Position numbers and translations under genes: made by a program. Under the pieces are notes generated by a model. That model was not told the origin of the DNA and did not search any database. It saw only the letters and a program-made list of their open reading frames with translations. From contig NW_003314262.1 of assembly GCF_000143415.4 (NCBI RefSeq), forward strand, positions 1,991,046 to 2,055,045: 64,000 nucleotides of DNA. The letters are read 5' to 3'. Origin of the DNA: Selaginella moellendorffii. Lineage: Eukaryota > Plantae > Lycopodiophyta. Positions 1 to 40,244 of this stretch are shown piece after piece; positions within the stretch are counted from its first letter, which is position 1; every line of letters starts with the position of its first letter.

Positions 1-2480
1 GATTGGCCTTGTCGAACGAAGCTAGGAAGTCACTCCAGTCCCACTCTGCTGCAGGACCAATAACAAGGGCGAGTGTGAAGATGCGGACATTCGTTGGTAT
101 CTTCTTCTTAGCCATTATCCCATGGATCTCCCGCATCTCCTTGCCTTTCAACCGAGCCTTCACCTCGTTCAAGGCCTTCTAGAACTTGTGATAGGATTCG
201 GAGTCGTAGATCATACAGTGGACTGAAGATTCCACCTCTGCAAGTCCCACCATTAAGTTAATGATGGAGCTGACTTCGTTTGCATGAGTGATCTCCTCGT
301 TTGTGAAGTACATCACACAAAAGATGTTCTTGACCTGCTCATCTCCGCAGGAAACGATGCTCCTCCACCTTTGATCCTCATCCGAATTCAAGTATACCCG
401 GTAAGGTTCTCGATAGGCCTCTGCTGCGGGGTCGAGCTGTTTCTGAAGCTGGCGGTCGACATCACTCTTAATGAAATTTGGATACTGATCCAACTTCTCA
501 GCTTTACTTTTCGTGGCATCCCGCAGCAGATCGATGAACTTGGGGGCCCCCTTCACGTACTCGTCGATGTCTTCATTTGACAAATCCAGCGCTTCCATCA
601 TCTCTTGCATGGTGTCGATGCTCACCCTCTCCACGGCCACTTGCTCGAAGATCCAATCCTTCAATAGCGCACGAGCTCTCAGAGTCGTGCACAAGTCCTC
701 GTATGTCACAATATGGCCGGGAGTCATTTTGGTCTTGTTGAAGACTACCTCACCACGTAGAAGAGCATTAGCCACTATCAGAAGGTCGTTGTCGTCTAGA
801 GACCGCGAGAAACGCAAGGCGTTGAGCTTCAAATCATTGGGCTTCCGGCCGTCCTCCACACCCATTGAGTTTGGCAACTCCCCGTCATGGTACCTCCTCA
901 GCACATCTACCCATTTGTCATAAACAACTTTTGTCGCGAGTAGAATGTTATGGATGCTGAGTGTGTCATTGACCCCCAGTGTTTTTGAGAGAAGACTCGA
1001 GAATTCCTACAATGGAAATGGCGTGAGGCCACATGCTATGCCACATGCAACGAGGCTTACCTGCCAGGCGCTAGTTGCTAGTGCACGTCCTTGTCCTGGT
1101 TTTTGTGGCTTCTTCAGTTGAACCCAGAGCTTCCGTGTTCGTCCCAATGTCTTGTGCAGACCCGATTTGTAACACATTTCTTGCTTGACATTCTGCGTGT
1201 GGGAGATGTATATGATAGATCGGAGGGGCGAGTTGCCTTTTATCAGGCGGACAACTCTTGTCTTGAAGACTTTCTTCACCTCCTCACCCACCATAATATC
1301 CACAACTATCTCTTGCATCGCCAAGCTAGAATGCTGCCCGGAGACGGCATAGAACCGGATGTTCTGATCGTCCAACACCTTCCTATTGATCAAGTCTGGA
1401 AACCTCGTCTCGCCCTTCATTGTTCGGTAGTAGGGGATCACGTCTGCGATGTCGGGTGTTACTGGACTTGCCAGCATCTTCTGCTTCAGTTTCTCCACCC
1501 ACTCATCAGATACTAGCCTGTGGTTGTATTTGCTTTGGATGTCGATACGGCTCACGTCGATTGTATATACTTTGTTGGAATAGTAACAAGTACTATTATC
1601 TGTGACGATTTTTGCTGCCTCTTCTTGCTCTTTCTGCTCTTTGCGGCTCTTCTTTTTGGTGGGTGTAGTGTTCGAACCCGAGGCAATGGCATCACCGAGT
1701 AGCTTCTTTTTTGGAGGAGAGTCGGACGTCGGCTTGAGTTTGACCACCCTTTTCTGCTTCGGGGTAGTTTCCAGATTGACCCCCTTCCCCTTCGCTTCGC
1801 GAACTGGAGGCACTCTCAACGGCTCAATGTTGGAATATAGTTTTTGAACATCGCCGTAGGTGAGGTCTGTGGATTCCATGTGATCTTCATAGACCCGCAG
1901 CGTCTTTGAAATTGTGGGCTTCCTGGAAAACCTCTCCCTAGCTTCCTCTAGGAATTCCTCATAGCCGCTGCCCCCCTCCTAGAAGCCGCTAGGATGTGCA
2001 AGGTGGATCTTGAAGGCAGACGCTGTCTCTACCACAAGTGCCAGTCCATATTCTTGCATGGAACTGCATGGAGTGTCTATCACTTGGATGAGGATCCCCA
2101 TGCATTCTTTTCTCCCACCATCTGTGTTGTACAACCTCAGATCCTCGCCTTCCATCCCGAAAGTCCAACTGGTGAGCTCCTCCCCCTTCTCTGCATCCAC
2201 ATTAACAGTGGCTGGAAGAAGAACACAATTCCTCGCCTGTTCAGAAATGCACAACAATTAGAGCTGACAGATGAAAAGCTAGCAGTTGGAAATAACGTGA
2301 GGCCACACGCTATTCACCACTGCATCAGATGTCTTGAGGCTGCATCCTAAGATGGCGTGAGGCTACACGCCATCTGTAACCGGACTGCACTCGAGAGCCC
2401 AATCGGTGCATGCCAATGTTGCTACTGAATGGCATGTGGCCTCATGCCATTTTCTATTTGGCCTAAAAGACTTACCATTT
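1..2480 (-). pseudogene. Cargo gene of copy 1 (ParB-like + methyltransferase-like), 5' part, disrupted
   Basis: ORFs 1979-2257, 1007-1879 and 179-904 match the copy-2 cargo protein. TCG>TAG at 1979-1981 and TGG>TAG at 179-181 truncate it. Confidence 0.85.
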
Positions 2481-3677
2481 GAAGCCGAATGGAGGCGTGA
2501 CAACCGAACTCGCTAGCAAATGTGCACTGTGTGTGCAGCGGATCGTAGCAGCAAGGCTACTCTGCCACTTACAGTTGGAGAGTGGCGCTGAAATCTCCCA
2601 GGACGCCAAGTGGGCTGCGTGTGGGTGGCGGAGTGGGTGGCAGAGTTGGCGGCGAAGTTACAAATTGGGTGTGTCTTGAAGTGGACGCCGATGCACACGA
2701 GCGCGATGCGAGCGCGAGTGGACGCCGATGCACACGAGAAACCTGTAGAGAAGTGGGAGTGCGAGTGGGAGCGCGATGCGAGCGCGAGTACGAAGCAAAA
2801 TGCAAAACCTAACCTCACACGCGCGAAATGTCACGACGGTTGGTAATCCTGCCACGTCATCATTCCTCGGACTTGGGCGCCACCATTAATTTCTGGATCG
2901 CCGCGCGCATGCGTGAAATCCAAAAGAAATCCGCAACGTCATCATTCCTCGGACTGCATGCACGCGAAATCCAAAAGAAAGATCATGATTGGGATATCAT
3001 TTAATACCCTCGCTATATTTATACCATGCATGATTGGATATTCCAAAGCATTTTGTATTTCCAAAAATGCCAGATATTCAGCTAAATAAATTGTCAGAGG
3101 ATTTGATGTGACGTTCAAGCGTGTGGGCTCATGCAATTTTGATCCCAAAAAATGCTCGGCGTCATCTGGCGTTATCTCTTGAATGGCGTGGGGCCGCATG
3201 CCATTTTCAGGAGCACATAGGAGTATATTCCTAGAATATTCTAACACGCGCGAGATTGTTTTGAGTTTCCTGGAGATCCAACCGTTAGATCGCAACTAGA
3301 TTTTACAGAATGGTATACAATATCCTTCTTGATGACCCTGCAAAGAAGCATCTCGATCGGACACCACATGAGACCACACGAGCCTTACAATGTTTCAAGG
3401 GCATTTGCCATAGATCCGACCGTTATTTTGCTCCAAGATTCTACAGTTTGGTGTGCATTGACCTTTCCATCGACACTGCAAAGGGACATCACAATCAAAT
3501 GCGGGATCACAAGAAACCAACTTCACTAACTTTGGTTTCACCAAGATCTACGTAAGGAGTTATAAAATTAAAGGACCCTTTCTATTGAAATGTGTTTATG
3601 GTCTTAGGGGCATTGTGACATATCAAAGGATTTTGCATCAAGTTCTGTATTTGCATGTTTATCAAGCTACTGAATTG

Positions 3678-3702
3678 CTAAACCCTAAACCCTAACCCTA
3701 AA
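3678..3702 (-). repeat. Short plant telomere-type repeat (CCCTAAA)n / telo-box cluster inside the transposon intergenic region
   Basis: ctaaaccctaaaccctaaccctaaa; same tract at 32916-32947 and 33793-33818 in copy 2. Confidence 0.85.
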
Positions 3703-4988
3703 CATGTGGCAAATGCTGCGTGAAGAAAGATGCCCTTTCTGGGCAAATGCTGTAAGAGGCAAATGCCGAGCAGATGTATCTCAGGCTAGCGAAGGGGACA
3801 AACGAAAGCTAGCTATAAACATGATGGGATGCAAATAGATTACTAGGCTGGTCCTGCGAAAATCAAAAACCATAATTGAAAACATTGAAAATGCAAAAAG
3901 AAAGGTTTATAATATTTTTGAATTTTAAGCAACCAAAGGAATGTAAGTAGGGCATGTGTTTGTAAGTTTAAAAATGCCTCAACCACTTAAATTCCCAAGT
4001 AAATAAAGCTGTTTCTATTTTTGGTACAGGTAAACTTTATAGCGTGTAGGCTCATGCAATTTTGAACCCAAAAATGCACCAAAAAATGCTCAACTAGCAT
4101 TATTCTTTGAATGGCGTGTGGCCTTATATTGCCATAAATGGACGTACACACACAGCATAATTATTCCTTTACACGGCGAATAATCTTGGCGCGGATCGCT
4201 GACATGGCATGGCAAAGTTCGAATCACTGACATAGCACAGCTAGATCGAGGCAAGGACATGATGTGACAAAGTTCAACCTCCGATAGCAAAGTCTAGAAG
4301 CTACTCAGTTTGAAATTTGTCAGAGGAATCATAAGATCTGGTTTGTCAGAGGATTTGATGTGACGTTCAAGCGTGTGTTATTTTTGAATTCTCGAACTCA
4401 TTCCTAGGTCTATCATTTTTGTGCGCCATGTTCTTGGTTCCGCTGAGCGCAGTGAGCGCTGCTTGTGTAAGCGGCGTTGTGAGCTGTGGTTTATGCGTCT
4501 ACAAGCGGCTGCGACATTGCGAGCGCCATTGCAAGCGGCAGTTTATGCGAGTGGCAGTTTGTGCGAGCGGCGCTACGAGCAGTTGCGGTATTGCGAGCGG
4601 CGCTACGAGTAGTTGCGGTGTTGCAAGCGGCACTGTCTTTGGTGTGGCTACCATTTCCTCTTGATATTCGGCACTTGTGCTTCTTGGTATGTTCACCATG
4701 GAATGGTTTAGGACCACATTTAGAAATGGCATGAGGCCACATGCCATCTTGGGCCCTTGCAATTTCATGGCTAGCGTATTGTCATGTATGTTTTTACTTG
4801 CCTGCAGCTGTGTGTATATCAAGATGGCATGAGGCTTCATGCCAATTTTGTGAATGCGAAATTTCACGTGGGTGTCAATAGCATGTTTGAATAATGGCAT
4901 GTGGCCTCATGCTATTTGGTATGTTATGATTTAGGCCATTCTCCAATCATTTTTTGTATGGTCTTAACTTCTTTTTTGCACTTTCAGA

Positions 4989-7900
4989 ATAGCCTTCAGG
5001 GTTGGGGAAAAGGTTTACATTTTGAATGGTGGGAAGAGAGTTGCAAAAGGGACCCTTGTGTCTATGGATCGGAACTTTGTNNNNNNNNNNNNNNNNNNNN
5101 NNNNNNNNNNNNNNNNNNNNNNNNNNNNNNNNNNNNNNNNNNNNNNNNNNNNNNNNNNNNNNNNNNNNNNNNNNNNNNNNNNNNNNNNNNNNNNNNNNNN
5201 NNNNNNNNNNNNNNNNNNNNNNNNNNNNNNNNNNNNNNNNNNNNNNNNNNNNNNNNNNNNNNNNNNNNNNNNNNNNNNNNNNNNNNNNNNNNNNNNNNNN
5301 NNNNNNNNNNNNNNNNNNNNNNNNNNNNNNNNNNNNNNNNNNNNNNNNNNNNNNNNNNNNNATCCAAGAGATGCGGTTGCTAATCAAGAATTGGGCTGGG
5401 ATGATATTGGAGTTGCGATTTTAGAGGTTGTTGACACAGAAGAAAACAGTCTGACTATTGGAAGCATTGTGCGGTGGAAATTGAGGCATTTAGTGTTTGA
5501 GAATGTGAAGGATTCACAATCAAACACCACTACAACTGATGACAGAACATCTCTTCATGGGAAAAGAAAGTACACCTTCCTACAGTGCAGCCAAAGGGAT
5601 CTGAGCAACGAACTGAAAAGGCAGAAAATGGCGATGGAGGTTCGAATGGTCTCGACAGTTGCTTGTTGCAAGAGGAGGTGCTATCAACATGCTGATTGGG
5701 ATGCTATTGAAGAGGAGAGAGCAAGATATAAGACATTGTCCTGGAAGGCAGCTCTCAATTTTGTGTATGAGGCATTACGGTCATCTGTTGATGCTTTAGA
5801 ACATCAGGTGGGGGGCATGGTCTTCCAGAGGGGTTTGGTCTGCATGAAGGTATGGAGAATCATTTATGGAGTCCCTCGAAGCACATTCTACAGAATCAAA
5901 ATTGAGTTCAAGGAACAAAGGGTTCAACAGGCAGTCCATGGGAACGACGGTACGCACAAAACCAGGGGTCATGTTGTATATGGAGAGGCAATCTTCAAGA
6001 GGTTTGTCGAGACATGTAGTGAGTAGCAACCACATAAAACCCGCCTCTTGGAAGATGGAACACGAGACACCCAACGAGTTCTCCCTTCCATGTATACCAA
6101 GGGGGCCATATTGGAAGATGTGAATCGGGAACTCTAGAGTAATGGCTACAGGAAGCTGAGCCAATCTAGATTTAGTAGATTGTGGAGCAACAGGTTCAGA
6201 GATGTGAGTATAGGAAAGTACTCCAGCTTTTCAAAGTGTGACGAGTGCACTGCTATCAAAATGGCTTTGTCAAAGAATTCTTGCAGCGCTCAAGAGCGAG
6301 AGACGTTGGTTAGAAGGCTGCTCGACCACAACATCGAGCAGAGAAGCTGCAGGACTGCATATTATTATAACAGAATTCTCTCCATGGAGAGACCTGACTC
6401 TTACCTCTGCATCATCCACGACAAAATGGACCAGAAAAAGACGTGCTTACCTCGACTCAATCCTGCCCCCAAGGCAATCTCTTCATCCATGCAACTACCT
6501 GTGTCTCTGTTTGGCATAATCGCTCATGGGCATGGTGCCCAGAACTATGGGAACTTCTTTGTACCTCTATGGGGTGGCGAGGGTGCAAACATGATGATTG
6601 CGTCCCTAGCAAAACACTTAAGGTCTCTGCAAAGTGCGCAGACTGAGCTGAACGGCCAACCCTTGCATAAGGCCCTTGTCGATCGAACCCCATACAGGGT
6701 TCAGTTGGAGGAGGAGCAAAGGCTTGCAGTATCGCGTGGGGCCCCATGCCATCCCAGTGAATATGTTGGCCGTCAGATTGTAGGGTTATCACGTGAGGCC
6801 TTATGCCATTCCGACGAGGCTGGTCGCCCGATGAATGCACAGCCTCATCCAAACGAAGCAGAATCTCAAGGAAGTTCTTGCGGCCAATGTGGCCTTCCAC
6901 CCCATCTTCTGCTCCAAACAGACAATGCTGGTAGTGAGAACAAAAACATGTACGTCTTCGCGTACTTGGCGATGCTTGTTGCCAAAGGCATATTTGAAAC
7001 GGTTACACTTGGCTTTCTCATGGTTGGGCACACTCATGAAGACGTCGATGCCATGTTCAGTCACCTGGCAGAGTCCCTCCGGCGATCCAATGTCCTCACC
7101 CTCCCACAACTCTACGATGAATTCTAAAATTGCATCAAAGGCACTGTTGAAGCTGCACTTGTGACAGAGGTTCCAGACTTTAAGGGGTTTGTAAGAGGCT
7201 ACATCAGGGACGGATCCGAAACGCTGATTGGCCACTCCAAGCCTCTTCAGTTTCATTTCAGCATGCGTGACGGTGCTCCAGTGATGAGGTACAAGATGAG
7301 AGAATGGGACACAGTGTGGCTGCTAGTGGATGGCATTGAACTCTTCCAGAGAGATCCCATAACTGAGGAACCTATGATTCCTCAGGGTTCCCCACGGCCG
7401 ATGCACCCGGATGGACTCAAAGACCAGGAAAGTATAGTGGCCGGGATTAGACAGCATATTGCTTTCTGGAAGAGGGGGTTGGTGTTTGGTGAAGAATCCT
7501 ATTTTAAGAGGTGCAAGCCTTTGCTCGAATACTGGGAGAAGATTATATCTGCTATCCAAAATGGGCCGGTTGTATATGAAGAATTGGAAGAGTCCTTTTG
7601 GCCAGAACCCAGAGCACCAGATAGTAGCGGAACAATGTCCTCTGGAAATGCAGTGACAGATAACGATGTTGAGGATCACTATTGTGGGCCGAGGAACAAG
7701 AAGCCGGATTCAGCATTCAATCCAGTACAGGTCTGCAAAGGAATGGTCATGCTTGTCAGACCCAGTAATAAAAAACAAATGATATGGGTGGGGCGCTGCA
7801 TCACTGATGCAGAGGAAGACGCAGAAACTAACTCCTTCAATGTAACTGTGGAGTGGTTCAAGCCAAGTTCCGGATATACGAAGGATTGCCTAGAAAAGAG

Positions 7901-8057
7901 ATGGGTGCTGAATCCAAGGGATCCCAACATGAACATATCGGTGGATAATGTTGTGCATGGTTGGATGCGGAAGCAGAGTGCCACTATCACCTTGCCAGAC
8001 CATGCAAGAGATGCAGCAAGAGCATTCATAACCCGGGTTCAAGGTGAGATTCATTAA
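4989..8057 (+). pseudogene. Sola-like transposase, disrupted
   Basis: Collinear with 28354-31422. Start ATG>ATA (4989-4991) and stops at 6024-6026, 6135-6137 and 7125-7127. N gap at 5081-5360. Confidence 0.9.
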
Positions 8058-8856
8058 TATTCCTTTACTAAGTTTCTAATGTATTTTATTTCAAGGTGAA
8101 CAATCCGAATCTGAATCAGAGGAGGCGTGATGGCATGGCGTGATGGCATGAGGCGTGAGGCGTGACACCAAAAAGAAGGTGTCCACTAGCGCTTAGGCTT
8201 ATAATGGCGTGTGCCCTCATGCCATTTACTTGATCACCAAATACCTTTTTCCCTTTGCACTAGTATATCTTAATACCGGTCTGAGAAATAGAATGGCATG
8301 TGCCCTCAGGCCTTTTACTAAATCACCTTTGAAAGAAATGCAAGCCTCTATGTCGTAAAAAAAAGGTACTAGAGAAATTCCTTAATAATATGAATGTTAT
8401 TTAGTTTCATGAAAATACACTAAGGGTCAAATGAGTTAAATGACTTCTCCAGACTAGCAATGCCTCTTGCTACACCTTCACAATTAGATTCGTTAGAAAA
8501 AGATAACATTGAATAATATCTAAATGTTCTCACCATTAAGTTATATGTCTGGTTAATAGGAATGACGTTCATCTTGGAAAGCTCACCACACGCTCAATGA
8601 ACAAACAAATAGTGTGTGCGCGCATGCCATCGCTCTTCTTTAGCTTCAGATTCGGCTTGTTCACTTTGACAATGAGATTTATTATACAACCAGATGGACT
8701 CAGTCTGGACACAAAGTCACTGCGCTAGTCACCATGCCCCAGATATGTCTAGCCCCTGGACAAAAAACATATAATTTCACGTCATTTTCAAATACTTGAA
8801 AATTTGTACCTAGTCCCATTTTACTGAATAAATCCCACTTTAACGAAATAGAGTTT

Positions 8857-24313: not shown

Positions 24314-24365
<52 letters not shown>

Positions 24366-25432
24366 TCGGGACCGAGATGGAGGCCGAGGTCGAGACCGAG
24401 TCCGAGTCCAAGTCCGAGTCCGAGTTCGAGTCTGAGACGGTGAAAGCCCAAAGCATTTGTCTCCCAGACCCTGGGGGGTTTGATGAGCTCCAAAAGTATA
24501 GTAAGGAGGAGGACTGCAGTGGAGCCAGTTTGGCCAGGAAAGGCTAGTTTGGCCTAGGAAGGCTGTACCCAGTGTTGGGTGATGAGCTGCCCACTGGGAA
24601 GTCCAAGACTAGAGTGAACACAAACTGACAAGCGGGGTAGCTTGGTGAAGTGTTCAAGAGCCGACTCTAGTTCCCCTGGGAGATTGACTGTCTAATGCTC
24701 CCAGTCCAAGTGTGGGTGGCACTACCTACTTGGATACCAAGCGTGGCTCAACGGAATCTCGCTCTAAGCCCATGGCTAGAGCACCCAAAGGCGGAAGGCG
24801 GGGAGAGTACCCACGAGGCATATGTAAGGCCACAGTGTTTTGAAATGTTATCCCAAAGGCCTAGACTGTGGAAAGGAAGAGGAGTACTCCTCTAGTGTAG
24901 TGACCAAGGATATAGTTGGGTGGTGAGGAAGTCCTAGAGGACCGTGGGACTTAGTGGTCGGGCCCGTGGGCCTTGATCCAGTGGCAGTGTTGGCAAACAC
25001 GGCCAAGGACGGAATGGGACTTGGTGGGGATTGGAAAGGGGATATTGGGGAAGGCTATTCCCCATGTCTAGGGGCATCCTAAGGATGCTAAGGAGTAGAT
25101 CTGGGAAGATCACTCATGGACAGATGGCCTAGTCTTTGAGAGACGAGACTGTGAGGTAGGTGGTGTCAGACCACTGATGTGACCAAGGTGAATGGGCATG
25201 GCCTTAGCGTAATGGGCTGATATAACGGTGGTACCTTGGGGTGTCGGTCATGGGACCGAACACGTGGAGCACTTGGACCAAGTGTAAAGGTTGAATGGCA
25301 TGGATACCATTCTCGGGGCTAGCAAGCCCAAATCCTGAGTGGGACTTATGGAGGTTGTGAATGAGACTCCTCCAAATAGTCGGAGATGCGGTTAAGTGAC
25401 CAAAGTAGAATGGAAAAATTTAGTTGCTTACA
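19243..25432 (+). mobile_element. Decayed Gypsy-type LTR retrotransposon with satellite-containing LTRs
   Basis: TSD TCTCT at 19238-19242 and 25433-25437. 3' LTR 23655-25432 preceded by a purine tract; 5' LTR 19243-~20330 truncated by internal deletion. Interior lacks intact ORFs. Confidence 0.85.
19490..19935 (+). repeat. Hexamer-based tandem array (GAGTCC/GAGATG/GAGACC) within LTR
   Basis: Visible in sequence. Also at ~23895-24435, ~46300-46800 (-), ~49490-49745 (-) and ~60920-61020. Confidence 0.9.
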
Positions 25433-27300: not shown

Positions 27301-27665
27301 GTAGCACAACGGGCTTAGAGTTTAGCTCCATTGGTGATCAAGGCATTTTAATTTTTATATTATATCCGTATGATCATGAGCAATGTGTTTATAAAGTTAG
27401 TTGGTCAAATAACAATTAACACCAAAGTGGTTGATGATAGTCTACTTACAAGTAGTAGCATTGTATAAGCTTTAACTATATTCTCAAAAGTGATCTATTA
27501 TATTAAGTTGGTGAGAGTACCTTATTTCCTTAAGAGTTTGCCTATTGAGGTTTTGGAAAAATTATAACATTCGTTTACTATAGCTTGTTAGTGGATCTAT
27601 TATCATTTGGAGTAAATTTTTAAATGAAAAAAGTGTGCATTGGTATTGCTAGCATTTGTGTTAGT

Positions 27666-27689
27666 AAGCTCTATTTCGTTAAAGTGGGA
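27666..27689 (+). repeat. Left terminal inverted repeat
   Basis: Exact reverse complement of 40217-40240. Confidence 0.95.
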
Positions 27690-28353
27690 TTTATTCAGTA
27701 AAATGGGACTAGGTACAAATTTTCAAGTATTTGAAAATGACGTGAAATTATATGTTTTTTGTCCAGGGGCTAGTCATATCTGGGGCATGGTGACTAGCGC
27801 GGTGACTTTGTGTCCAGACTGAGTCCATCTGGTTGTATAATAAATCTCATTGTCAAGGTGAACAAGCCGAATCTGAAGCTAAAGAAGAGCGATGGCATGC
27901 GCGCACACACTATTTGTTTGTTCATTGAGCGTGTGGTGAGCTTTCCAAGATGAACGTCATTCCTATTAGCCAGACATATAACTTAATGGTGAGAACATTT
28001 AGATATTATTCAATGTTATCTTTTTCTAACAAATCTAATTGTGAAGGTGTAGCAAGAGGCATTGCTAGTCTGGAGAAGTCATTTAACTCATTTGACCCTT
28101 AGTGTATTTTCATGAAACTAAATAACATTCATATTATTAAGGAATTTCTCTAGTACCTTTTTTTTACGACATAGAGGCTTGCATTTCTTTCAAAGGTGAT
28201 TTAGTAAAAGGCCTGAGGGCACATGCCATTCTATTTCTCAGACCGGTATTAAGATATACTAGTGCAAAGGGCCACATGCCATCACGCCTCCTCTGATTCA
28301 GATTCGGATTGTTCACCTTGAAATAAAATACATTAGAAACTTATAAAAAAATA

Positions 28354-31300
28354 TTAATGAATCTCACCTTGAACCCGGGTTATGAATGCTCTTGCTGCAT
28401 CTCTTGCATGGTCTGGCAAGGTGATGGTGGCACTCTGCTTCCGCATCCAACCATGCACAACATTATCCACCGATATGCTCATGCTGGGATCCCTTGGATT
28501 CAGCACCCATCTCTTTTCTAGGCAATCCTTCGTATATCCGGAACTTGGCTTGAACCACTCCACAGTTACATTGAAGGAGTTAGTTTCCGCGTCCTCCTCT
28601 GCATCAGTGATGCAACGCCCCACCCATATCATTTGTTTTTTATTACTGGGTCTGACAAGCACGACCATTCCTTTGCAGACTTGTACTGGATTGAATGCTG
28701 AATCCGGCTTCTTGTTCCTCGGCCCACAATAGTGATCCTCAACATCGTTATCTGTCACTGCATTTCCAGAGGACATTGTTCCGCTACTATCTGGTGCTCT
28801 GGGTTCTGGCCAAAAGGACTCTTCCAATTCTTCATATACAACCGGCCCATTTTGGATAGCAGATATAATCTTCTCCCAGTATTCGAGCAAAGGCTTGCAC
28901 CTCTTAAAATAGGATTCTCCACCAAACACCAACCCCCTCTTCCAGAAGGCAATATGCTGTCTAATCCCGGCCACTATACTTTCCTGGTCTTTGAGTCCAT
29001 CCGGGTGCATCGGCCGTGGGGAACCCTGAGGAATCATAGGTTCCCCAGTTATGGGATCTCTTTTGAAGAGTTCAATGCCGTCCACTGGCAGCCACACTGT
29101 GTCCCATTCTCTCATCTTGTACCTCATCACTGGAGCACCATCACGCATGCTGAAATGAAACTGAAGAGGCTTGGAGTGGCCAATCAGCGTTTCGGATCCG
29201 TCCCTGATGTAGCCTCTTACAAACCCCTTAAAGTCTGGAACCTCTGTCACAAGTGCAGCTTCAACAGTGCCTTTGATGCAATTTTGGAATTCATCGTAGA
29301 GTTGTGGGAGGGTGAGGGCATTGGATCGCCGGAGGGACTCTGCCAGGTGACTGAACATGGCATCGACGTCTTCATGAGTGTGCCCAACCATGAGAAAGCC
29401 AAGTGTAACCGTTTCAAATATGCCTTTGGCAACAAGCATCGCCAAGTACGCGAAGACGTACATGTTTTTGTTCTCACTGCCAGCATTGTCTGTTTGGAGC
29501 AGAAGATGGGGTGGAAGGCCACATCGGCCGCAAGAACTTCCTTGAGATTCTGCTTCGTTTGGATGAGGCTGTGCATTCACCGGGCGACCAGCCTCGTCAG
29601 AATGGCATGAGGCCTCACGTGATAACCCTACAATCTGACGGCCAACATATTCACTGGGATGGCATGGGGCCCCACGCGATACTGCAAGCCTTTGCTCCTC
29701 CTCCAACTGAACCCTGTATGGGGTTCGATCGACAAGGGCCTTATGCAAGGGTTGGCCGTTCAGCTCAGTCTGCGCACTTTGCAGAGACCTTAAGTGTTTT
29801 GCTAGGGACGCAATCATCATGTTTGCACCCCCGCCACCCCATAGAGGTACAAAGAAGTTCCCATAGTTCTGGGCACCATGCCCATGAGCGATTATGCCAA
29901 ACAGAGACACAGGCAGCTGCATGGATGAAGAGATTGCCTTGGGGGCAGGATTGAGTCGAGGTAAGCACGTCTTTTTCTGGTCCATTTTGTCATGGATGAT
30001 GCAGAGGTAAGAGTCAGGTCTCTCCATGGAGAGAATCTTGTTATGATAATATGCAGTCCTGCAGCTTCTCTGCTCGATGTTGTGGTCGAGCCGCCTTCTA
30101 ACCAACGTCTCTCGCTCTTGAGCGCTGCAAGAATTCTTCGACAAAGCCATTTTGATAGCAGTGCACTCGTCACACTTTGAAAAGCTGGAGTACTTTCCTA
30201 TACTCACATCCCTGAACCTGTTGCTCCACAATCTACTAAATCTAGATTGGCTCAGCTTCCTGTAGCCATTACTCTGGAGTTCCCGATTCACATCTTCCAA
30301 TATGGCCCCCTTGGTATACATGGAAGGGAGAACTTGTTGGGTGTCTCGTGTTCCATCTTCCAAGAGGCGGGTTTTATGTGGTTGCTGCTCGCTACATGTC
30401 TCGACAAACCTCTTGAAGATTGCCTCTCCATATACAACATGACCCCTGGTTTTGTGCGTACCGTCGTTCCCATGGACTGCCTGTTGAACCCTTTGTTCCT
30501 CGAACTCAGTTTTGATTCTGTAGAATGTGGTTCGAGGGACTCCATAAATGATTCTCCATGCCTTCATGCAGACCAAACCCCTCTGGAAGACCATGCCCCC
30601 CACCTGATGTTCTGAAGCATCAACAGATGACCGTAATGCCTCATACACAAAATTGCGAGCTGCCTTCCAGGACAATGTCTTGTATCTTGCTCTCTCCTCT
30701 TCAATAGCATCCCAATCAGCATGTTGACAGCACCTCCTCTTGCAACAAGCAACTGTCGAGACCATTCGAACCTCCATCGCCATTTTCTGCCTTTTCGGTT
30801 CGTTGCTCAGATCCCTTTGGCTGCGCTGTAGGAAGGTGTACTTTCTTTTCCCATGAAGAGATGTTCTGTCATCAGTTGTAGTGGTGTTTGATTGTGAATC
30901 CTTCACATTCTCAAACACTAAATGCCTCAATTTCCACCGCACAATGCTTCCAATAGTCAGACTGTTTTCTTCTGTGTCAACAACCTCTAAAATTGCAACT
31001 CCAATATCATCCCAGCCCAATTCTTGATTAGCAACCGCATCTCTTGGATCGACAACTGTGGCTAAGCCCTCAGCTACCACCTCCCCCTCGGGGTTGTTTA
31101 GAAACACCTTTGCCTGAATCCATGTAGCACGGTTCTTAAGATCCACGGAGGGAACATGCGTCGCACTTGCGCTGTCCCCAACATCTGCTTTCTTCTGCAG
31201 ATTTTTCAAGGCAACAACAACATTTACCCCGACGACCATCTCTCCTCGTTCAATAGCGACCACATTCCCATCGAAGACAGTCTCTACTGATACAGCAGCA

Positions 31301-31422
31301 TTGCCTTCCCCAAGCCTTTGACAGTGTATAACAAAGTTCCGATCCATAGACACAAGGGTCCCTTTTGCAACTCTCTTCCCACCATTCAAAATGTAAACCT
31401 TTTCCCCAACCCTGAAGGCCAT
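28354..31422 (-). CDS. Sola-like DDD transposase, 1022 aa (possible extra terminal exon 28282-28316 via intron 28317-28367)
   Basis: Motifs IHDKMDQ, LLQTDNAGSENKN and FLMVGHTHEDVDAMFS (acidic triad with GH..D, Sola-type). Cys/His clusters (CCKRRCC, KCDECT..H). Uninterrupted ORF inside TIRs. Confidence 0.88.
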   Translation of the reverse strand: MAFRVGEKVYILNGGKRVAKGTLVSMDRNFVIHCQRLGEGNAAVSVETVFDGNVVAIERGEMVVGVNVVVALKNLQKKADVGDSASATHVPSVDLKNRATWIQAKVFLNNPEGEVVAEGLATVVDPRDAVANQELGWDDIGVAILEVVDTEENSLTIGSIVRWKLRHLVFENVKDSQSNTTTTDDRTSLHGKRKYTFLQRSQRDLSNEPKRQKMAMEVRMVSTVACCKRRCCQHADWDAIEEERARYKTLSWKAARNFVYEALRSSVDASEHQVGGMVFQRGLVCMKAWRIIYGVPRTTFYRIKTEFEEQRVQQAVHGNDGTHKTRGHVVYGEAIFKRFVETCSEQQPHKTRLLEDGTRDTQQVLPSMYTKGAILEDVNRELQSNGYRKLSQSRFSRLWSNRFRDVSIGKYSSFSKCDECTAIKMALSKNSCSAQERETLVRRRLDHNIEQRSCRTAYYHNKILSMERPDSYLCIIHDKMDQKKTCLPRLNPAPKAISSSMQLPVSLFGIIAHGHGAQNYGNFFVPLWGGGGANMMIASLAKHLRSLQSAQTELNGQPLHKALVDRTPYRVQLEEEQRLAVSRGAPCHPSEYVGRQIVGLSREASCHSDEAGRPVNAQPHPNEAESQGSSCGRCGLPPHLLLQTDNAGSENKNMYVFAYLAMLVAKGIFETVTLGFLMVGHTHEDVDAMFSHLAESLRRSNALTLPQLYDEFQNCIKGTVEAALVTEVPDFKGFVRGYIRDGSETLIGHSKPLQFHFSMRDGAPVMRYKMREWDTVWLPVDGIELFKRDPITGEPMIPQGSPRPMHPDGLKDQESIVAGIRQHIAFWKRGLVFGGESYFKRCKPLLEYWEKIISAIQNGPVVYEELEESFWPEPRAPDSSGTMSSGNAVTDNDVEDHYCGPRNKKPDSAFNPVQVCKGMVVLVRPSNKKQMIWVGRCITDAEEDAETNSFNVTVEWFKPSSGYTKDCLEKRWVLNPRDPSMSISVDNVVHGWMRKQSATITLPDHARDAARAFITRVQGEIH

Positions 31423-31576
31423 TCTGAAAGTGCAGAAAAGAAGTTAAGACCATACAAAAAATGATTGGAGAATGGCCTAAATCATAACATACCAAATAGC
31501 ATGAGGCCACATGCCATTATTCAAACATGCTATTGACACCCACGTGAAATTTCGCATTCACAAAATTGGCATGAGC

Positions 31577-31612
31577 CCTCATGCCATTAGTGGTACCACT
31601 AATGGCATGAGG
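31577..31612. repeat. Perfect 36-bp palindrome bridging two 22-bp motif copies upstream of the transposase
   Basis: CCTCATGCCATTAGTGGT|ACCACTAATGGCATGAGG; checked base by base. Confidence 0.9.
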
Positions 31613-32430
31613 CGTCACGCTATCTTTGGCCCCTGCTAGCCTGTTGCTGCAAGGGCCCAAGATTGTTGCAACTGTATATATTTTTGTGTGCGTGACTAGT
31701 CACCCATACAAAAATATATACAGTTGCAGCAAGGCAAAAGGAATATGGCAATAGGTTAGCAGGGGCCCAAAGATGGTATGAGGCCTCATGCCATCTTGAT
31801 ATACACACAGCTGCAGGCAAGTAAAAACATACATGACAATACGCTAGCCATGAAATTGCAAGGGCCCAAGATGGCATGTGGCCTCATGCCATTTCTAAAT
31901 GTGGTCCTAAACCATTCCATGGTGAACATACCAGGAAGCACAAGTGCCGAATATCAAGAGGAAGCGGTAGCCACACCAAAGACAGTGCCGCTCGCAACAC
32001 CGCAACTTCTCGTAGCGCCGCTCGCAACACCGCAGCTGCTCGTAGCGCCGCTCGCACAAACTGCCACTCGCATAAACTGCCGCTCGCAATGGCGCTCGCA
32101 ATGCCGCAACCGCTTGTAGACGCATAAACCACAGCTCACAACGCCGCTTACACAAGCAGCGCTCACTGCGCTTAGCGGAACCAAGAACACGGCGCACAAA
32201 AATGATAGACCTAGGAATGAGTTCGAGAATTCAAAAATAACACACGCTTGAATGTCACATCAAATCCTCTGACAAACCAGATCTTATGATTCCTCTGACA
32301 AATTTCAAACTGAGTAGCTTCTAGACTTTGCTGTCGGAGGTTGAACTTTGTCACATCATGTCCTTGCCTCGATCCAGCTGTGCCATGTCAGTGATTCGAA
32401 CTTTGCCATGCCATGTCAGCGATCCGCGCC

Positions 32431-34286
32431 AAGATTATTCGCCGTGTAAAGGAATAATTATGCTGTGTGTGTACGTCCATTTATGGCAATATAAGGCCAC
32501 ATGCCATTCAAAGAATAATGCTAGTCGAACATCTTTTGGTGCATTTTTGGGTTCAAAATTGCATGAGCCCACACGCTATAAAGTTTACCTGTACCAAAAA
32601 TAGAAACAGCTTTATTTACTTGGGAATTTAAGTGGTTGAGGCATTTTTAAACTTACAAACACATGCCCTACTTACATTCCTTTGGTTGCTTAAAATTCAA
32701 AAATATTATAAACCTTTCTTTTTGCATTTTCAATGTTTTCAATTATGGTTTTTGATTTTCGCAGGACCAGCCTAGTAATTTATTTGCATCCCATCATGTT
32801 TATAGCTAGCTTTCGTTTGTCCCCTTCGCTAGCCTGAGATACATCTGCTCGGCATCTGCCTCTTACAGCATTTGCCCAGAAAGGGCATCTTTCTTCACGC
32901 AGCATTTGCCACATGTTTAGGGTTAGGGTTTAGGGTTTAGGGTTTAGCAATTCAGTAGCTTGATAAACATGCAAATACAGAACTTGATGCAAAATCCTTT
33001 GATATGTCACAATGCCCTTAGGACCATAAACACATTTCAATAGAGAGGGTCCTTTCATTTCATAACTCCTTACGTAGATCTTGGTGAAACCAGAGTTAGT
33101 GAAGTTGGTTTCTTGTGATTCCGCATCTGATTGTGATGTCCCTTTGCAGTGTCGATGGAAAGGTCAATGCACACCAAACTGTAGAATCTTGGAGCAAAAT
33201 AACGGTCGGATCTATGGCAAATGCCCCTGAAACATTGTAAGGCTCGTGTGGTCTCATGTGGTGTCCGATCGAGATGCTTCTTTGCAGAGTCATCAAGAAG
33301 GACATTGTATACCATTCTATAAAATCTGGTTGCGATCTAACGGTTGGATCTCCAGGAAACTCAAAACAATCTCGCGCGTGTCAGAATATTCTAGGAATAT
33401 ACTCCTATGTGCTCCAAGATTATTCGCCGTGTAAAGGAATAATTATGCTGTGTCATTTATGGCAATATAAGGCCACACGCCATTCAAAGAATAATGCTAG
33501 TTGAGCATTTTTTGGTGCATTTTTGGGTTCAAAATTGCATGAGCCCACACGCTATAAAGTTTACCTGTACCAAAAATAGAAACACCTTTATTTACTTGGG
33601 AATTTAAGTGGTTGAGGCATTTTTAAACTTACAAACACATGCCCTACTTACATTCCTTTGGTTGCTTACATTCCTTCGGTTGCTAGCTTTCGTTTGTCCC
33701 CTTCACTAGCCTGAGATACATCTGCTCGACATCTGCCTCTTACAGCATTTGCCCAGAAAGGGCATCTTTCTTCACGCAACATTTGCCACATGTTTAGGGT
33801 TTAGGGTTTAGGGTTTAGCAATTCAGTAGCTTGATAAACATGCAAATACAGAACTTGATGCAAAATCCTTGGATATGTCACAATGCCCCTAGGACCATAA
33901 ACACATTTCAATAGAGAGGGTCCTTTCATTTCATAACTCCTTACGTAGATCTTGGTGAAACCAGAGTTAGTGAAGTTGGTTTCTTGTGATCCCGCATTTG
34001 ATTGTGATGTCCCTTTGCAGTGTCGATGGAAAGGTCAATGCACACCAAACTGTAGAATCTTGGAGCAAAATAACGGTCGGATCTATGGCAAATGCCCCTG
34101 AAACATTGTAAGGCTCGTGTGGTCTCATGTGGTGTCCGATCGAGATGCTTCTTTGCAGAGTCATCAAGAAGGACATTGTATACCATTCTGTAAAATCTGG
34201 TTGCGATCTAACGGTTGGATCTCCAGGAAACTCAAAACAATCTCGCGCGTGTCAGAATATTCTAGGAATATACTCCTATGTGCTCC
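32431..34286 (+). repeat. Tandem duplication within the transposon intergenic region (32431-33415 / 33416-34286)
   Basis: Two near-identical units, each with a telomere-type tract, joined at a CC microhomology. Copy 1 has a single unit (~3213-4190). Confidence 0.88.
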
Positions 34287-34539
34287 TGAAAATGGCATGC
34301 GGCCCCACGCCATTCAAGAGATAACGCCAGATGACGCCGAGCATTTTTTGGTGCATTTTTTGGGATCAAAATTGCATGAGCCCACATGCTTGAACGTCAT
34401 CCTCTGACAATTTATTTAGCTGAACATCTGGCATTTTTGGAAATACAAGATGCTTTGGAATATCCAATCATGCATGGTATAAATATAGCGAGGGTATTAA
34501 ATGATATCCCAATCATGATCTTTCTTTTGGATTTCGCGT

Positions 34540-35040
34540 GCATGTAGTCCGAGGAATGATGACGTTGCGGATTTCTTTTGGATTTCACGCATGCGCGCGC
34601 CGATCCAGAAATTAATGGTGGCGCCCAAGTCCGAGAAATGATGACGTGGCGGGATTACCAACCGTCGTGACATTTCGCGCGTGTGAGGTTAGGTTTTGCA
34701 TTTTGCTTCGTACTCGCGCTCGCACACTCGCGCTCGCATCGCGCTCCCACTTCTCTACAGGTTTCTCGTGTGCATCGGCGTCCACTCGCGCTTGCATCAC
34801 ACTCGCGCTCGCATCGCGCTCGTGTGCATTGGCGTCCACTTCAAGACACACCCAGTTTGTAACTTCGCCGCCAACTCCGCCGCCCACTCCGCCACCCACA
34901 CGCAGCCCACTTGGCGTCCCGGGAGATTTCAGCGCCACTCTCCAACTGTAAGTGGTAGAGTAGCCTTGCTGCTACGATCTGCTGCACACACAGTGCACAT
35001 TCGCCAGCGAGTCCGGTTGTCACGCCTCCATTCGGCTTCA
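34540..35040 (+). promoter_or_regulatory. CpG-rich putative promoter / 5' UTR of the cargo gene
   Basis: Direct repeats AGTCCGAGRAATGATGACGT (34546-34565, 34628-34647) with TGACG cores and CGCGCTCGCA repeats, followed by ATG|GTAAGT at 35042-35050. Confidence 0.45.
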
Positions 35041-35283
35041 AATGGTAAGTCTTTTAGGCCAAGTAGAAAATGGCATGAGGCCACATGCCATTCAGTAGCA
35101 ACATTGGCATGCACCGATTAGGCTCTCGAGTGCAGTCCGGTTACAGATGGCGTGTAGCCTCACGCCATCTTAGGATGCAGCCTCAAGACATCTGATGCAG
35201 TGGTGAATGGCGTGTGGCCTCACGTTATTTCCAGCTACTAGCTTTTCATCTGTCAGCTCTAATTGTTGTGCATTTCTGAACAG

Positions 35284-38200
35284 GCGAGGAATTGCGTTCT
35301 TCTTCTAGCCACTGTCAATGTGGATGTAGAGAAGGGGGAGGAGCTCACCAGTTGGACTTTCGGGATGGAAGGCGAGGATCTGAGGCTGTACAACACAGAT
35401 GGTGGGAGAAAAGAATGCATGGGGATCCTCATCCAAGTGACAGACACTCCATGCAGTTCCATGCAAGAATATGGACTGGCACTTGTGGTAGAGACAGCGT
35501 CTGCCTTCAAGATCCACCTTGCACATCGTAGCGGCTTCTCGGAGGGGGGCAGCGGCTATGAGGAATTCCTAGAGGGAGCTAGGGAGAGGTTGTCCAGGAG
35601 GCCCACAATTTCAAAGACGCTGCGGGTCTATGAAGATCACATGGAATCCACGGACCTCACCTACGGCGATGTTCAAAAACTATATTCCAACATTGAGCCG
35701 TTGAGAGTGACTCCAGTTCGCGAAGCAAAGGGGAAGGGGGTCGATCTGGAAACTACCTCGAAGCAGAAAAGGGTGGTCAAGCTCAAGCCGACGTCTGACT
35801 CTCCTGCTCCAAAAAAGAAGCTACTCAGTGATGCCATTGCCTCGGGTTCGAACACTACACCCACCAAAAAGAAGAGCCGCAAAGAGCAGAAAGAGCAAGA
35901 AGAGGCAGCAAAAATCGTCGCAGATAATAGTACTTATTACTATTCCAACAAAGTATATACAATCGACGTGAGCCGTATCGACATCCAAAGCAAATACAAC
36001 CACAGGCTAGTATCTGATGAGTGGGTGGAGAAATTGAAGCAGAAGATGCTGGCAAGTCCAGTAACACCCGACATTGTAGACGTGATCCCCTACTACCAAA
36101 AAATGAAGGGCGAGATGAGGTTTCCAGACTTGATCAATAGGAAGGTGTTGGACGATCAGAACATCCGGTTCTATGCCGTCTCCGGGCAGCATTCTAGCTT
36201 GGCGATGCAAGAGATAGTTGTGGATATTATGGTGGGCGAGGAGGTGAAGAAAGTCTTCAAGACAAGAGTTGTCCGCCTGATAAAAGGCAACTCGCCCCTC
36301 CGATCTATCATATACATCTCCCACACGCAGAATGTCAAGCAAGAAATGTGTTACAAATCGGGTCTGCACAAGACATTGGGACGAACACGGAAGCTCTGGG
36401 TTCAACTGAAGAAGCCACAAAAACCAGGACAAGGACGTGCACTAGCAACTAGCGCCTGGCAGGTAAGCCTCGTTGCATGTGGCATAGCATGTGGCCTCAC
36501 GCCATTTCCATTGTAGGAATTCTCGAGTCTTCTCTCAAAAACACTGGGGGTCAATGACACACTCAGCATCCATAACATTCTACTCGCGACAAAAGTTGTT
36601 TATGACAAATGGGTAGATGTGCTGAGGAGGTACCATGACGGGGAGTTGCCAAACTCAATGGGTGTGGAGGACGGCCGGAAGCCCAATGATTTGAAGCTCA
36701 ACGCCTTGCGTTTCTCGCGGTCTCTAGACGACGACGACCTTCTGACAGTGGCTAATGCTCTTCTACGTGGTGAGGTTGTCTTCAACAAGACCAAAATGAC
36801 TCCCGGCCATATTGTGACATACGAGGACTTGTGCACGACTCTGAGAGCTCGTGCGCTATTGAAGGATTGGATCTTCGAGCAAGTGGCCGTGGAGAGGGTG
36901 AGCATCGACACCACGCAAGAGATGATGGAAGCGCTGGAGTTGTCAAATGAAGACATCGACGAGTACGTGAAGGGGGCCCCCAAGTTCATCGATCTGCTGC
37001 GAGATGCCACGAAAAGTAAAGCTGAGAAGTTGGATCAGTATCCAAATTTCATTAAGATTGATGTCGACCGCCGGCTTCAGAAACAGCTCGACCCCGCAGC
37101 AGAGGCCTATCGAGAACCTTACCGGGTATACTTGAATTCGGATGAGGATCAAAGGTGGAGGAGCATCGTTTCCCGCGGAGATGAGCAGGTCAAGAACATC
37201 TTTTGTGTGATGGACTTCACAAACGAGGAGATCACTCATGCAGACGAAGTCAGCTCCATCATTGACTTAATGGTGGGACTTGCGGAGGTGGAATCTTCAG
37301 TCCACTATATGATCTACGACTCCGAATCCTATCACAAGTTTTGGAAGGCCTTGAACGAGGTGAAGGCTCGGTTGAAAGGCAAGGAGATGCGGGAGATCCA
37401 TGGGATAATGGCTAAGAAGAAGATACCGACGAATGTCCGCATCTTCACACTCGCCCTTGTTATTGGTCCTGCAGCAGAGTGGGACTGGAGTGACTTCCCA
37501 GCTTCGTTCGACAAGGCCAATCGAATTGATCTGAGGGAGGTCAATTTACCCGTGCCTGAGGAACTGAAGACGGCTATGGAGCTTTCGAATCCAAAGAAAG
37601 CTCCAGGTGCAGCATGGGAAATGCTCAGCTGGGTCTTCAACGCAATAGCGGGTGGGTCACCTGCTTCCGACTCCAAGGGCAAATGCGTTATCGAGTACAA
37701 CAGCGGCGGACTATTCTTTCGAGCCGCACTACTCAAGGGTGTCCCGTGTGTTGCGGTGACAAACTCCATTGAAGAGGGGACTTCAATGGAGCATATAATT
37801 ACAGTTGCCAAAGAAAAACAGTATCTTCTCTGCGAACCTGGTGAGTACGCACTTTAAGTTTAAATGTTATCTCACAAGCTCTGTATGCAGGAGCGTGGCC
37901 ACCCCCAGATGCTGAAACGGCGTTAACAGCTACTGTTGAAGATACTCATGTTGGGCCGAGCTCACAACCTGCACAAGGTAAGGTCACGTGAGGCCTCACG
38001 CCATTTTGATTATAGATCGTTGTGAATATTCAGACACGAGGACTGAAAAGCGCACTGGTGGCGCATCGAAGAAGGACAAACAGAAAAGCAATAGGAAAAA
38101 AGGAGGTACAAATTATATTTGCAATGGCGTGTGGTCTCATGCCATTCCTTGCAGGAGAAACTTCTTCAAAGGCAAAACAGGCAAGCACCAGCCAAGCTCA

Positions 38201-39869
38201 AACTGACAGTGGTCATAAAAAGCGAAAGCACGTTGGACAGTCGTCGAGATCAGAGGCGTTTGATTCGAAAAGGAAGAAGGGCAACGAAAAGATGATAGGT
38301 AATGCCTCGCGGTTATGGCGTGTGTGCTCATGCCATTCATTGCAGATCAAGGGCTGAGTGAAAGCAGGCAGTCACCACCTCATGACTCAGATTCCTATGG
38401 CGGACTCCCCTTCCCCAATCTCAATGGAGAGGTACAATGGATGAGGGAAGCTTTTCAAGGCAGGGCCACGTTTTTCTCATCTCGTCGTCTTCGAAGGGTG
38501 CAAGAACGTGCAGAAACCATGTTAAGACAGTCGGGTGAGGATACGGTCCTAGGTCACGCACTAAAACAGGCTATGGATGTCTTGTATTTTGAGATGGAGA
38601 CTCGGCCAGATGATTTTCCCAAGATGGTCCTGGAAGAACAAGCCATCCAGCCTGAGCAGCCTATGGAAGAAATGCAGGAGGGGGATGAGGAGCCAGAGAA
38701 AGATAATGAGCAGGAAGAGCAGAAGGACGAAGAGGAGGACAAAGAAGAGGAGGACGAAGAAGAGGAGGACGAAGAGGACTTGGATGGTCCTCACAATGGT
38801 GACGATCACAATAACAACGACGACGATGATGACGACGATGGCCAGCCTGAGGTGGCCAAAGAGCGGCGGAGGAAGGTCATACAAGACAAACCATCAGGTA
38901 AATAATAATACATCCATTCCTAACCTTTTACCATTTCTAACATTGTCCATGTAGGTCGCAGAGCAAATGGTAAGTAGAGATTATTCAGTTGAATTTACAA
39001 ACTCTAGCCTTTAGTGTCGAGGAAGGATAGTGCCAAGCAAGGGTCGAAACGTATGTCCAATCCTTCAGAATCAACAGTGCGCTCAAGTGATATCGGTCCT
39101 AGTTCCTCAATAGCAGTTGATGGTAAATACAGTATAGTCGATTCAATGTGCTAATAAGTTTGTTTTTAGTAGCACGAGAGGATACCATCTCAATCGAAGG
39201 GAGATATTTGGACATGCATATGGATCCGCCAGTGGACTCTACTTGGCTGCAAGAGTCATCAGAGCTGGTGGAGGCTACTATCCATATCAACGCCAAGCAA
39301 GCTGACCACGCTCCACTTGATGCTGCCCATACCACTGAGTCAATCTTGTCCACGTATCCAACTGACGGTGACCAGGCGCCATTGGACCCACATGAGGCCG
39401 CCCCAGCCGCCGAGCCGGTCGTATCCTCATTTCCAACGGACTCAACGTGTGCCCAATCGTCTGACTACGCGCCGTTGGAACCTCCCTACACCGCCCCTGC
39501 TACCTGTTCGGTCATGTCCACTTTGCCAACGGAGGCACCAGCTGAAATGGCGTGTGATCACACGCCATCGGAACCACCCCATGCCACTGTTGAGCCAGTT
39601 GTACCAGAGTCTACAGCTGAAATGGCATGTGCCCACACGCCATCGGATGCGATTGACCCCACATTGCAGAGGAGAGTATTTCCGCCCTTCACGTTTCCTC
39701 GACCAAAACCCTCTCAACGACCATCGGGAGCAACATTCGCTAATATTGTAGATGGTAAAATTGACTTGTACCATTTTTTATGCTGACGCATTTCATTTCA
39801 GAGTCATGGCGAAGGTACTGTATCGTTTTTGATCTGAACGGTGTCCTTTTCTCCCATGAGCGTGGCTGA
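35284..39869 (+). CDS. Multi-exon cargo protein: ParB/Srx-like domain + degenerate beta-class N4/N6 DNA-methyltransferase-like domain + disordered acidic/Pro-rich tail + truncated HAD(NIF/FCP1-like) motif
   Basis: One reading frame is kept across GT-AG introns 36463-36516, 37841-37890, 37978-38033, 38106-38154, 38299-38345, 38898-38954, 38970-39014, 39123-39169 and 39754-39801, to TGA 39867-39869. 5' exons (from ~35042) are unresolved. Domain calls from motifs IDVSRI..YNHRLV..WVEKL..FYAVSGQHS, NPKK..MLSWVF..KCVIEYNSGGLFFRAALLKGVPCVAV and CIVFDLNGVL. Confidence 0.75.
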
Positions 39870-40216
39870 ACGGTGTCCTTTGAGAGGATTTGCATTATAC
39901 TAGAAGTGTTACAGCATGTTATTGGAAGTCTACGAAGTTGTTTTATTAATAATGGGAAAGTAAAGATTGAATGGGGACTTGGGCTCCACCTAGACTCGGA
40001 GCAACTGAGCCAATATTAAAAGGATGGAAAGAAATTGGACGACGATGACAAGGAGAAGAGAGAGGTGAAGCAGTGGCAGGGGGAGGAGAAGTGATTGAGT
40101 AGACATTTCCTTGTTTAAAATAAAATGGCATGTGCCTCAATGCAGTTGAATTTTGTTATATTTATATACTATATAAAGGTTTGGAAACCTTATTTTACAA
40201 GTGGGATAATGACAAT

Positions 40217-40240
40217 TCCCACTTTAACGAAATAGAGCTT
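40217..40240 (-). repeat. Right terminal inverted repeat
   Basis: TCCCACTTTAACGAAATAGAGCTT followed by TSD TAGT. Confidence 0.95.
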
Positions 40241-40244
40241 TAGT

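Follow-up and report, generated by a model that had tools for sequence, protein, structure and literature searches.

The locus described here raises the question of what use a transposon may have for a protein that would keep the fold of a DNA methyltransferase after losing the residues with which such enzymes act. The gene lies in a window of 64,000 nucleotides (the whole stretch of DNA analysed), which is plant-like nuclear DNA, rich in repeats. A sequence-only reading had proposed an apparently degenerate beta-class amino-methyltransferase fold, fused behind a ParB-like domain and pointing to a pseudo-enzyme or an unusual chemistry. The gene is carried by a mobile element whose main features are the following.

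27666..40240, no strand: complete Sola-like DNA transposon of 12,575 bp, delimited by terminal inverted repeats, target duplication and empty site
27666..27689, plus strand: left terminal inverted repeat, 24 bp
40217..40240, minus strand: right terminal inverted repeat, 24 bp
28354..31422, minus strand: transposase, one open frame of 1022 aa with DUF7869 (Pfam PF25273, E 1.8e-42)
1..8856, minus strand: second copy of the element, inverted, cut by the window edge and carrying stops, 95-99% identical

The 24-bp terminal repeats are perfect, the target duplication TAGT is found at 27662-27665 and 40241-40244, and the empty site is provided by one contig of run X1 that joins 27660 to 40240. The transposase domain DUF7869 is one that we take to be linked to Sola, and its candidate catalytic Asp residues, a role inferred from motifs, lie in HDKMDQ (477), QTDNAG (643) and GHTHEDVD (680). 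The assignment to Sola is made because terminal inverted repeats and a 4-bp target duplication, both present here, fit the definition of that superfamily (PMC10741241); as to the subgroup (Sola1, Sola2 or Sola3), the evidence consists of the DUF7869 match and the three candidate Asp. No relatives of the transposase were found in viral contigs. Contigs matching a 12.9-kb stretch with the element amount to 53,912 in run X1 and 145,511 in run X3, and we read these contig numbers as many copies, depth being no copy number. Most of the differences between the two copies in the window are transitions at CG and CHG, which affect 6.8% and 8.1% of these sites compared with 1.9% of CHH sites, and this CG/CHG excess is the footprint of host 5mC.

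Several further observations concern the architecture of the element and its surroundings. The main copy lacks about 110 bp that the second copy has past the transposase stop (8251 versus 28271), and a contig of run X2 (record 8) carries about 940 extra letters at 28271, so that the length variants fall on a single spot, which adjoins a palindrome. Short telomere-type plant arrays, (GTTTAGG)n, occur at 32915-32947 and 33792-33818, within a duplicated unit of 870-980 bp between the transposase and the second gene. Outside the element, a repeat family made of arrays of 12-base CTCGGA-type units occupies 19242-20333, 23654-25432 and 45301-47035, in inverted orientation on either side of the transposon, and is probably retrotransposon DNA.

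The second gene of the element, hereafter the accessory gene, is divergent from the transposase and was modelled by hand and checked by script; all nine predicted introns are GT-AG and the model contains no internal stop. The parts of its product follow each other in the order given below.

35042..39786, plus strand: accessory gene, 10 predicted exons, 1372 aa
35284-35670, plus strand: N-terminal domain of about 130 aa, globular by composition, followed by a basic linker
35920..36462, plus strand: putative ParB/Srx-like domain
36463..36516, plus strand: phase-0 intron of 54 nt with one palindrome, separating the ParB-like part from the helical domain
36517..37098, plus strand: helical domain of about 195 aa
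37110..37840, plus strand: predicted beta-class amino-methyltransferase fold with degenerate motifs
37891..39786, plus strand: exons 4-10, low-complexity acidic tail of about 540 aa, as judged by composition

A Pfam search of the N-terminal domain returned no match, and the long tail is likely disordered, to judge from its composition. As for the methylase-like domain, the residues quoted by the sequence-only reading are all present in the plus-strand frame 36517-37857, namely KNIFCVMDFTN, with its D at 37213, and NPKK..EMLSWVFNAI followed by GKCVIEYNSGGLFFRAALLKGVPCVAVTNS, with its E at 37693. An AlphaFold model built from a 9-row alignment reached a mean pLDDT of 63 (below 50 at residues 287-346), compared with only 34 for the single-sequence model. 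When this model was compared with the PDB by Foldseek, all 14 matches at E<=1e-3 were beta-class or Type III Mod enzymes, PvuII and rotifer N4CMT among them, and in a VIA structure search of 48,161 chains all 11 matches with Z>=8 were beta-class (Z 8.9-10.7), with MT-A70 enzymes ranking next (Z 6.7-7.9). The best of these, CcrM (Z 10.7, rmsd 4.4, 188 aligned residues), aligns colinearly, residues 199-441 of the model on residues 3-259 of the chain, and the predicted model, at its pLDDT of 63, has the permuted Rossmann fold with motif IV ahead of motif I. Moreover, an Atlas model of the Selaginella relative described below independently matched PF01555 clusters (TM 0.67-0.70), including ParB_N+MTase fusions. 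The order of elements proposed in the sequence-only reading is thus borne out in the model, and its claim of a Rossmann methyltransferase fold, which it had exposed in advance to structure and profile searches, holds because the fold searches return beta-class enzymes.

Sequence profiles lend less direct help. The window protein itself gave no match to PF01555 even at E 10, nor to methylase profiles generally in the profile-library searches, so that the profile comparison suggested beforehand gave an answer through a relative only: L001, a metagenomic homologue, matches PF01555 at E 7e-4, its 20 bits lying below the curated cut-off of 26.7. The same protein matches four PADLOC type II methylase models, and its best PDB sequence is M.RsrI (E 0.06). 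When aligned to phage methylases by hhalign, the L001-centred profile reached Prob 86 and E 5e-6; the window-centred one matched weakly (Prob 10-13) with the same register at motif IV. Taken as a structural prediction, 37110..37840 would encode a beta-class DNA amino-methyltransferase fold.

The motifs on which catalysis depends are another matter. Where DPPY is expected at motif IV the window protein reads DFTN (37213-37224), only the Asp of (D/N/S)PP(Y/F) remaining; motif I reads EYNSGG (37693-37710), without the FxGxG of SAM binding and with a glycine loop one residue short; and motif II reads CVAVT in place of FIGFE, the acid being gone. These losses, already noticed in the sequence-only reading for this copy, extend well beyond it. 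Contigs of four runs show no change in the motif IV codons among the 40 differences listed of 46, and an X2 contig over the region, with 16 differences, has none there among the 15 listed; motif I is EYNCGG in the majority, where Ile to Val and Ser to Cys are the only departures from the window at this motif. Since the contig majority keeps the altered motif IV, the loss is a property of the family.

The same holds among divergent relatives. A HMMER scan of 1.84 billion representatives gave five matches, four of them relatives, one from Selaginella moellendorffii; the fifth, P0001, a repeat protein of other architecture, was judged a chance match, as were cytochrome c555 and miniGq among the PDB sequence matches of the alignment. 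A metagenome scan added L001, the one relative among 539 pattern matches. Word-index homologue searches returned nothing for the exon-3 protein, whether at near or at longer lengths, and P0005 only for the alignment. The relatives have open frames with 10-20% identity to the domain of the window (about 20% overall), L001 and P0006 being 40% identical to each other; five divergent lineages are distinguished, in all of which the flanking DNA is too short to show an adjoining transposase. In the hhalign alignments the DLPY of phage enzymes is matched by DFTN in the window, DANS in L001, DSAN in P0006, DLRR in Selaginella and DATT in P0013; PNPK, PRPK and PHVK align to HPTQKP, LDVCTG-G to LDNCMGSG and AICIA to FIGFE. 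The comparison of homologues that had been proposed as a check for DPPY/SPPY hence finds PPY in none of the five lineages, and motif loss is both family-level and common to the distant relatives found.

It could be argued that the motifs were lost by neutral decay of a formerly active cargo gene, and the second copy, in which the motif IV Asp is replaced by Tyr and a stop occurs, would fit such an account, as would a pN/pS of 0.5-0.9 between the two copies, a value derived from too few changes to be informative. The window copy, however, is open over 1372 predicted codons, and the loss is not decay of that copy because the contigs keep the residues and relatives at about 20% identity, with open frames, also lack PPY. 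Neutral decay is thus largely refuted and we regard it as very improbable. Open frames at low identity together with a conserved intron suggest instead long retention of the domain: the position of the intron at 36463..36516 is kept in L001 and, as deduced from an annotated protein, in Selaginella, where P0009 reads WQ before and EF after the same junction.

Two near-identical proteins of 451 aa from S. moellendorffii, P0003 and P0011, contain the helical and the dead methylase domains but lack both the ParB-like part and the long tail. They are possibly one locus in two haplotypes, and this single-locus-like gene may be a domesticated remnant.

Would a protein of this kind still transfer methyl groups? 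In N4CMT and CcrM the target amino group is bound by the first residue of motif IV together with the Pro carbonyl, and the flipped base is stacked by the Tyr (PMC10406627), which makes catalysis without PPY unlikely. An active methyltransferase with a non-standard chemistry or substrate, working through the retained Asp and the shortened glycine loop, could nevertheless be envisaged: the motif IV Asp is kept in 5/5 lineages aligned (D233, the sole invariant column of alignment A4), [DE]xxxGG of motif I in the 4/4 lineages that cover it, and an acid still follows motif II in the Selaginella protein. On the other hand, PPY is replaced differently in each lineage (FTN, ANS, SAN, LRR, ATT) and the motif II acid is missing in the window, L001 and P0006, so that we hold an active enzyme to be unlikely. 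Between the two options left by the sequence-only reading, the best reading of these residues is that 37110..37840 would be a pseudo-enzyme; because the Asp is kept in all five lineages, some room is left for the unusual chemistry.

If the domain is presumably not an enzyme, what lies ahead of it gains in interest. The stretches YNHRLVS, YAVSGQHSSLA and HTQNVKQE of 35920..36462 resemble, by eye, what we take to be the ParB boxes. No profile of Pfam, PHROGs, NCBIfam or the PDB matched this part, and PADLOC gave no ParB match; an hhalign comparison with a ParB profile scored 15.4, and 9 of 60 shuffles scored as high. Neither narrow phage profiles nor a bacterial ParB profile of 11 sequences outperformed shuffles, and these are weak tests since a methylase profile of the same narrow kind failed to pick up the methylase domain. 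A search of 301 bacterial genomes gave 19 weak matches, with no ParB among the seven examined; a match in SSU5 proved to be a primase (E 6). The ParB-like domain is accordingly treated here as a lead, backed by the published architecture of similar cargo proteins. The sequence-only reading was right in placing the methylase-like domain downstream of it; the fusion is less immediate than it supposed, the 54-nt intron and the helical domain standing between the two, and the ParB assignment is the part that no profile matched. Among the relatives conservation is highest in the helical domain, which all of them keep at 22-24% identity and which is modelled with a pLDDT of 60-90. An Atlas search gave no usable fold match for it, and we consider it a candidate site-reading module.

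A possible site is found in the element itself.

27892..40146, no strand: dispersed 22-bp palindrome ATGGCRTGDGGCCHCAYGCCAT, 21 sites at <=4 mismatches and 24 at <=5

At <=4 mismatches ATGGCRTGDGGCCHCAYGCCAT occurs 21 times in the element, 13 times in the second copy and not once in the other 42.6 kb of the window; the palindrome is confined to the element. Shuffled sequences (100) contained 0.01 sites on average, a control that is favourable because the consensus was derived from this element. The 24 sites at <=5 mismatches are distributed as 9 between the genes, 7 in introns, 4 in subterminal positions and 4 in coding DNA, giving a density of 11.2/kb in introns (7 sites in 626 nt) compared with 0.5-0.65/kb in exons. 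Among the 48 half-sites the dinucleotide is CA in 27, CG in 18 and TG in 1, a bias that points to a base-specific constraint.

The occurrence of the palindrome in introns is peculiar in that four predicted introns of 38-54 nt (36463-36516, 37978-38015, 38106-38154 and 38299-38345) contain little beyond the donor, one palindrome and the acceptor. In all four, 9-11 nt separate the end of the palindrome from the AG, and the right arm of the palindrome could thus serve as branch point too, splicing itself being predicted only. The TAG with which the 54-nt intron ends in the window (36514) is CAG in most copies, so that exons 2 and 3 and the intron between them make up a single open frame there without splicing. 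Run X20, whose RNA nature is only guessed, showed no splice joint, and its reads enter intron 2.

These features invite the proposal that it is the transposase that reads the palindromes, or that they serve as RNA hairpins or branch-point elements, the accessory protein acting otherwise. Sites close to either end and upstream of the transposase are in line with it, as is their placement in the four short introns, two of which fold better than most shuffles (z -2.5 and -1.7), and a preprint reports transposases that activate their cognate copies (10.64898/2026.08.24.746577). Yet the other two of these introns fold no better than shuffles, on the plus strand the stem contains an A-C mismatch at 9 of the 24 sites, and 13 of the 24 belong neither to the two coding regions nor to their introns; furthermore, ParB cargo with inverted repeats recurs beside an unrelated EnSpm transposase (bioRxiv 10.1101/2025.02.11.637652). 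We consider this proposal doubtful.

The explanation that we favour, with a probability of about 0.5 and on the strength of sequence features and a predicted model, is that the dead methyltransferase fold in the second gene of this Sola-like element would belong to a non-catalytic self-recognition, that is anti-silencing, factor that binds the element's own palindromes. By way of its ParB-like and helical parts the protein would, as a dimer, recognise the 22-bp palindrome in a parS-like manner, and the methylase fold would have been retained as a dimer and DNA-contact scaffold, a role that we suggest because beta-class enzymes act as dimers (PMC10406627). Occupied promoters, introns and ends could then sustain expression of the element in the face of 5mC silencing by the host, by analogy with VANC. 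A homodimer prediction of the methylase-like domain, run without alignment and without controls, scored 0.00 and speaks neither for nor against a dimer. Against the favoured explanation it must be said that the motif IV Asp and the GG pair are kept in all relatives covering them, a conservation not required of a dead enzyme; that model confidence is moderate (pLDDT 63), with no profile matching the ParB-like domain; and that the palindromes decay between the copies as elsewhere (10 of 371 positions differ, compared with about 2%), no match to ATGGCRTGDGGCCHCAYGCCAT being present in the 2 kb of L001.

The dead fold might alternatively be the inactive half of a heterodimer, like METTL14 or MTA9, that recruits or jams an intact ParB-methylase of other transposon families of the host. 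Beta-class enzymes do split tasks between subunits (PMC10406627) and the motifs of METTL14 are disrupted (PMC4738411), but no active partner is encoded within the 64-kb window and we deem such a partnership improbable. Returning to self-recognition by a non-catalytic factor, it is tempting to speculate, as a tentative extension, that transposons of seed-free plants would use a ParB/parS-like self-addressing, in which each family has its own palindrome, 38-54-nt introns are filled with the tag and the cognate protein shields the element from silencing, an old lineage having dropped methyl transfer and kept the fold.

Algal ParB+methylase cargo proteins have been proposed in published work to put a chemical mark on the transposon that carries them. 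That idea is put to a direct test by an element which is young, intact and high in copy number and whose family is without the catalytic motif, since an element that thrives without catalysis would owe the function to binding; if this is true, binding and not a 4mC/6mA mark would be the core function. Now that the protein and its predicted site are defined together with an intact element, silencing escape outside flowering plants becomes testable, and a sequence-specific epigenome tool might be a by-product.

Our searches retrieved no publication describing a land-plant transposon with a catalytically dead ParB-methylase, subscription papers being mostly outside their reach. ParB+methylase cargo of transposons is known; what is added here is an intact element, the family-level loss of the motifs, the Selaginella relative and the minimal introns filled with palindromes. 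The sequence-only reading had looked to rotifer N4CMT and Marchantia MpDN4MT1 for parallels. CcrM, M.RsrI, M.PvuII, N4CMT (PMC10406627) and DN4MT1 (bioRxiv 10.1101/2021.02.12.428880) indeed share the fold, with motif IV before motif I, but they are active and keep DPPY/SPPY, unlike the window protein, which is transposon cargo without the motif; N4CMT and MpDN4MT1 being host genes with intact SPPY/TSPPY, the ParB+methylase cargo of algal Sola and Plavaka elements is the nearer parallel. The Ectocarpus element Sola1-1_Ec32 has a cargo gene of this kind, for which self-binding was proposed (PMC12477816): it is a Sola element with a 4-bp target duplication whose second gene, on the strand opposite to the transposase, encodes a protein of >1100 aa with ParB-like and N4C/N6A methylase domains. 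The same layout, a divergent second gene with a ParB-like part and then a methylase in an element with terminal inverted repeats, is found here, the ParB half being recognised by eye. The predicted product of the Ectocarpus methylase is 4mC or 6mA, whereas the catalytic motifs are degenerate here, and the string 'palindrom' is absent from its main text (PMC12477816) while a dispersed 22-bp site is defined in the present element, a land-plant-type one of 12.6 kb with 24-bp terminal repeats, likened to it by layout and not by sequence. PAG2 and PAG3 of the Plavaka elements of Bostrychia (bioRxiv 10.1101/2025.02.11.637652) are likewise ParB-like and methylase accessory genes for which inverted repeats were proposed as binding sites; they differ in the EnSpm transposase, in the fusion of ParB to a 2OG oxygenase and of the methylase to SET, and in repeats forming tandem arrays beside the gene where the sites of the window are dispersed. 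The DIRS1 retrotransposons also keep an amino-methylase domain, judged inactive in all copies, but it derives from PCIF1, has a group-2 fold and is part of a retrotransposon polyprotein with neither ParB nor palindromes (PMC4738411). Finally, the anti-silencing system of VANC in the Arabidopsis VANDAL elements, on which the functional model above is patterned, combines an accessory gene with a short family-specific motif enriched in introns and non-coding parts, in Mutator-like elements whose 8-9-base non-palindromic motifs are spread by tandem repeats (PMC5735166); the likeness lies in the distribution of the motif only (here 11.2 sites/kb in introns and 0.5/kb in exons) and implies no homology.
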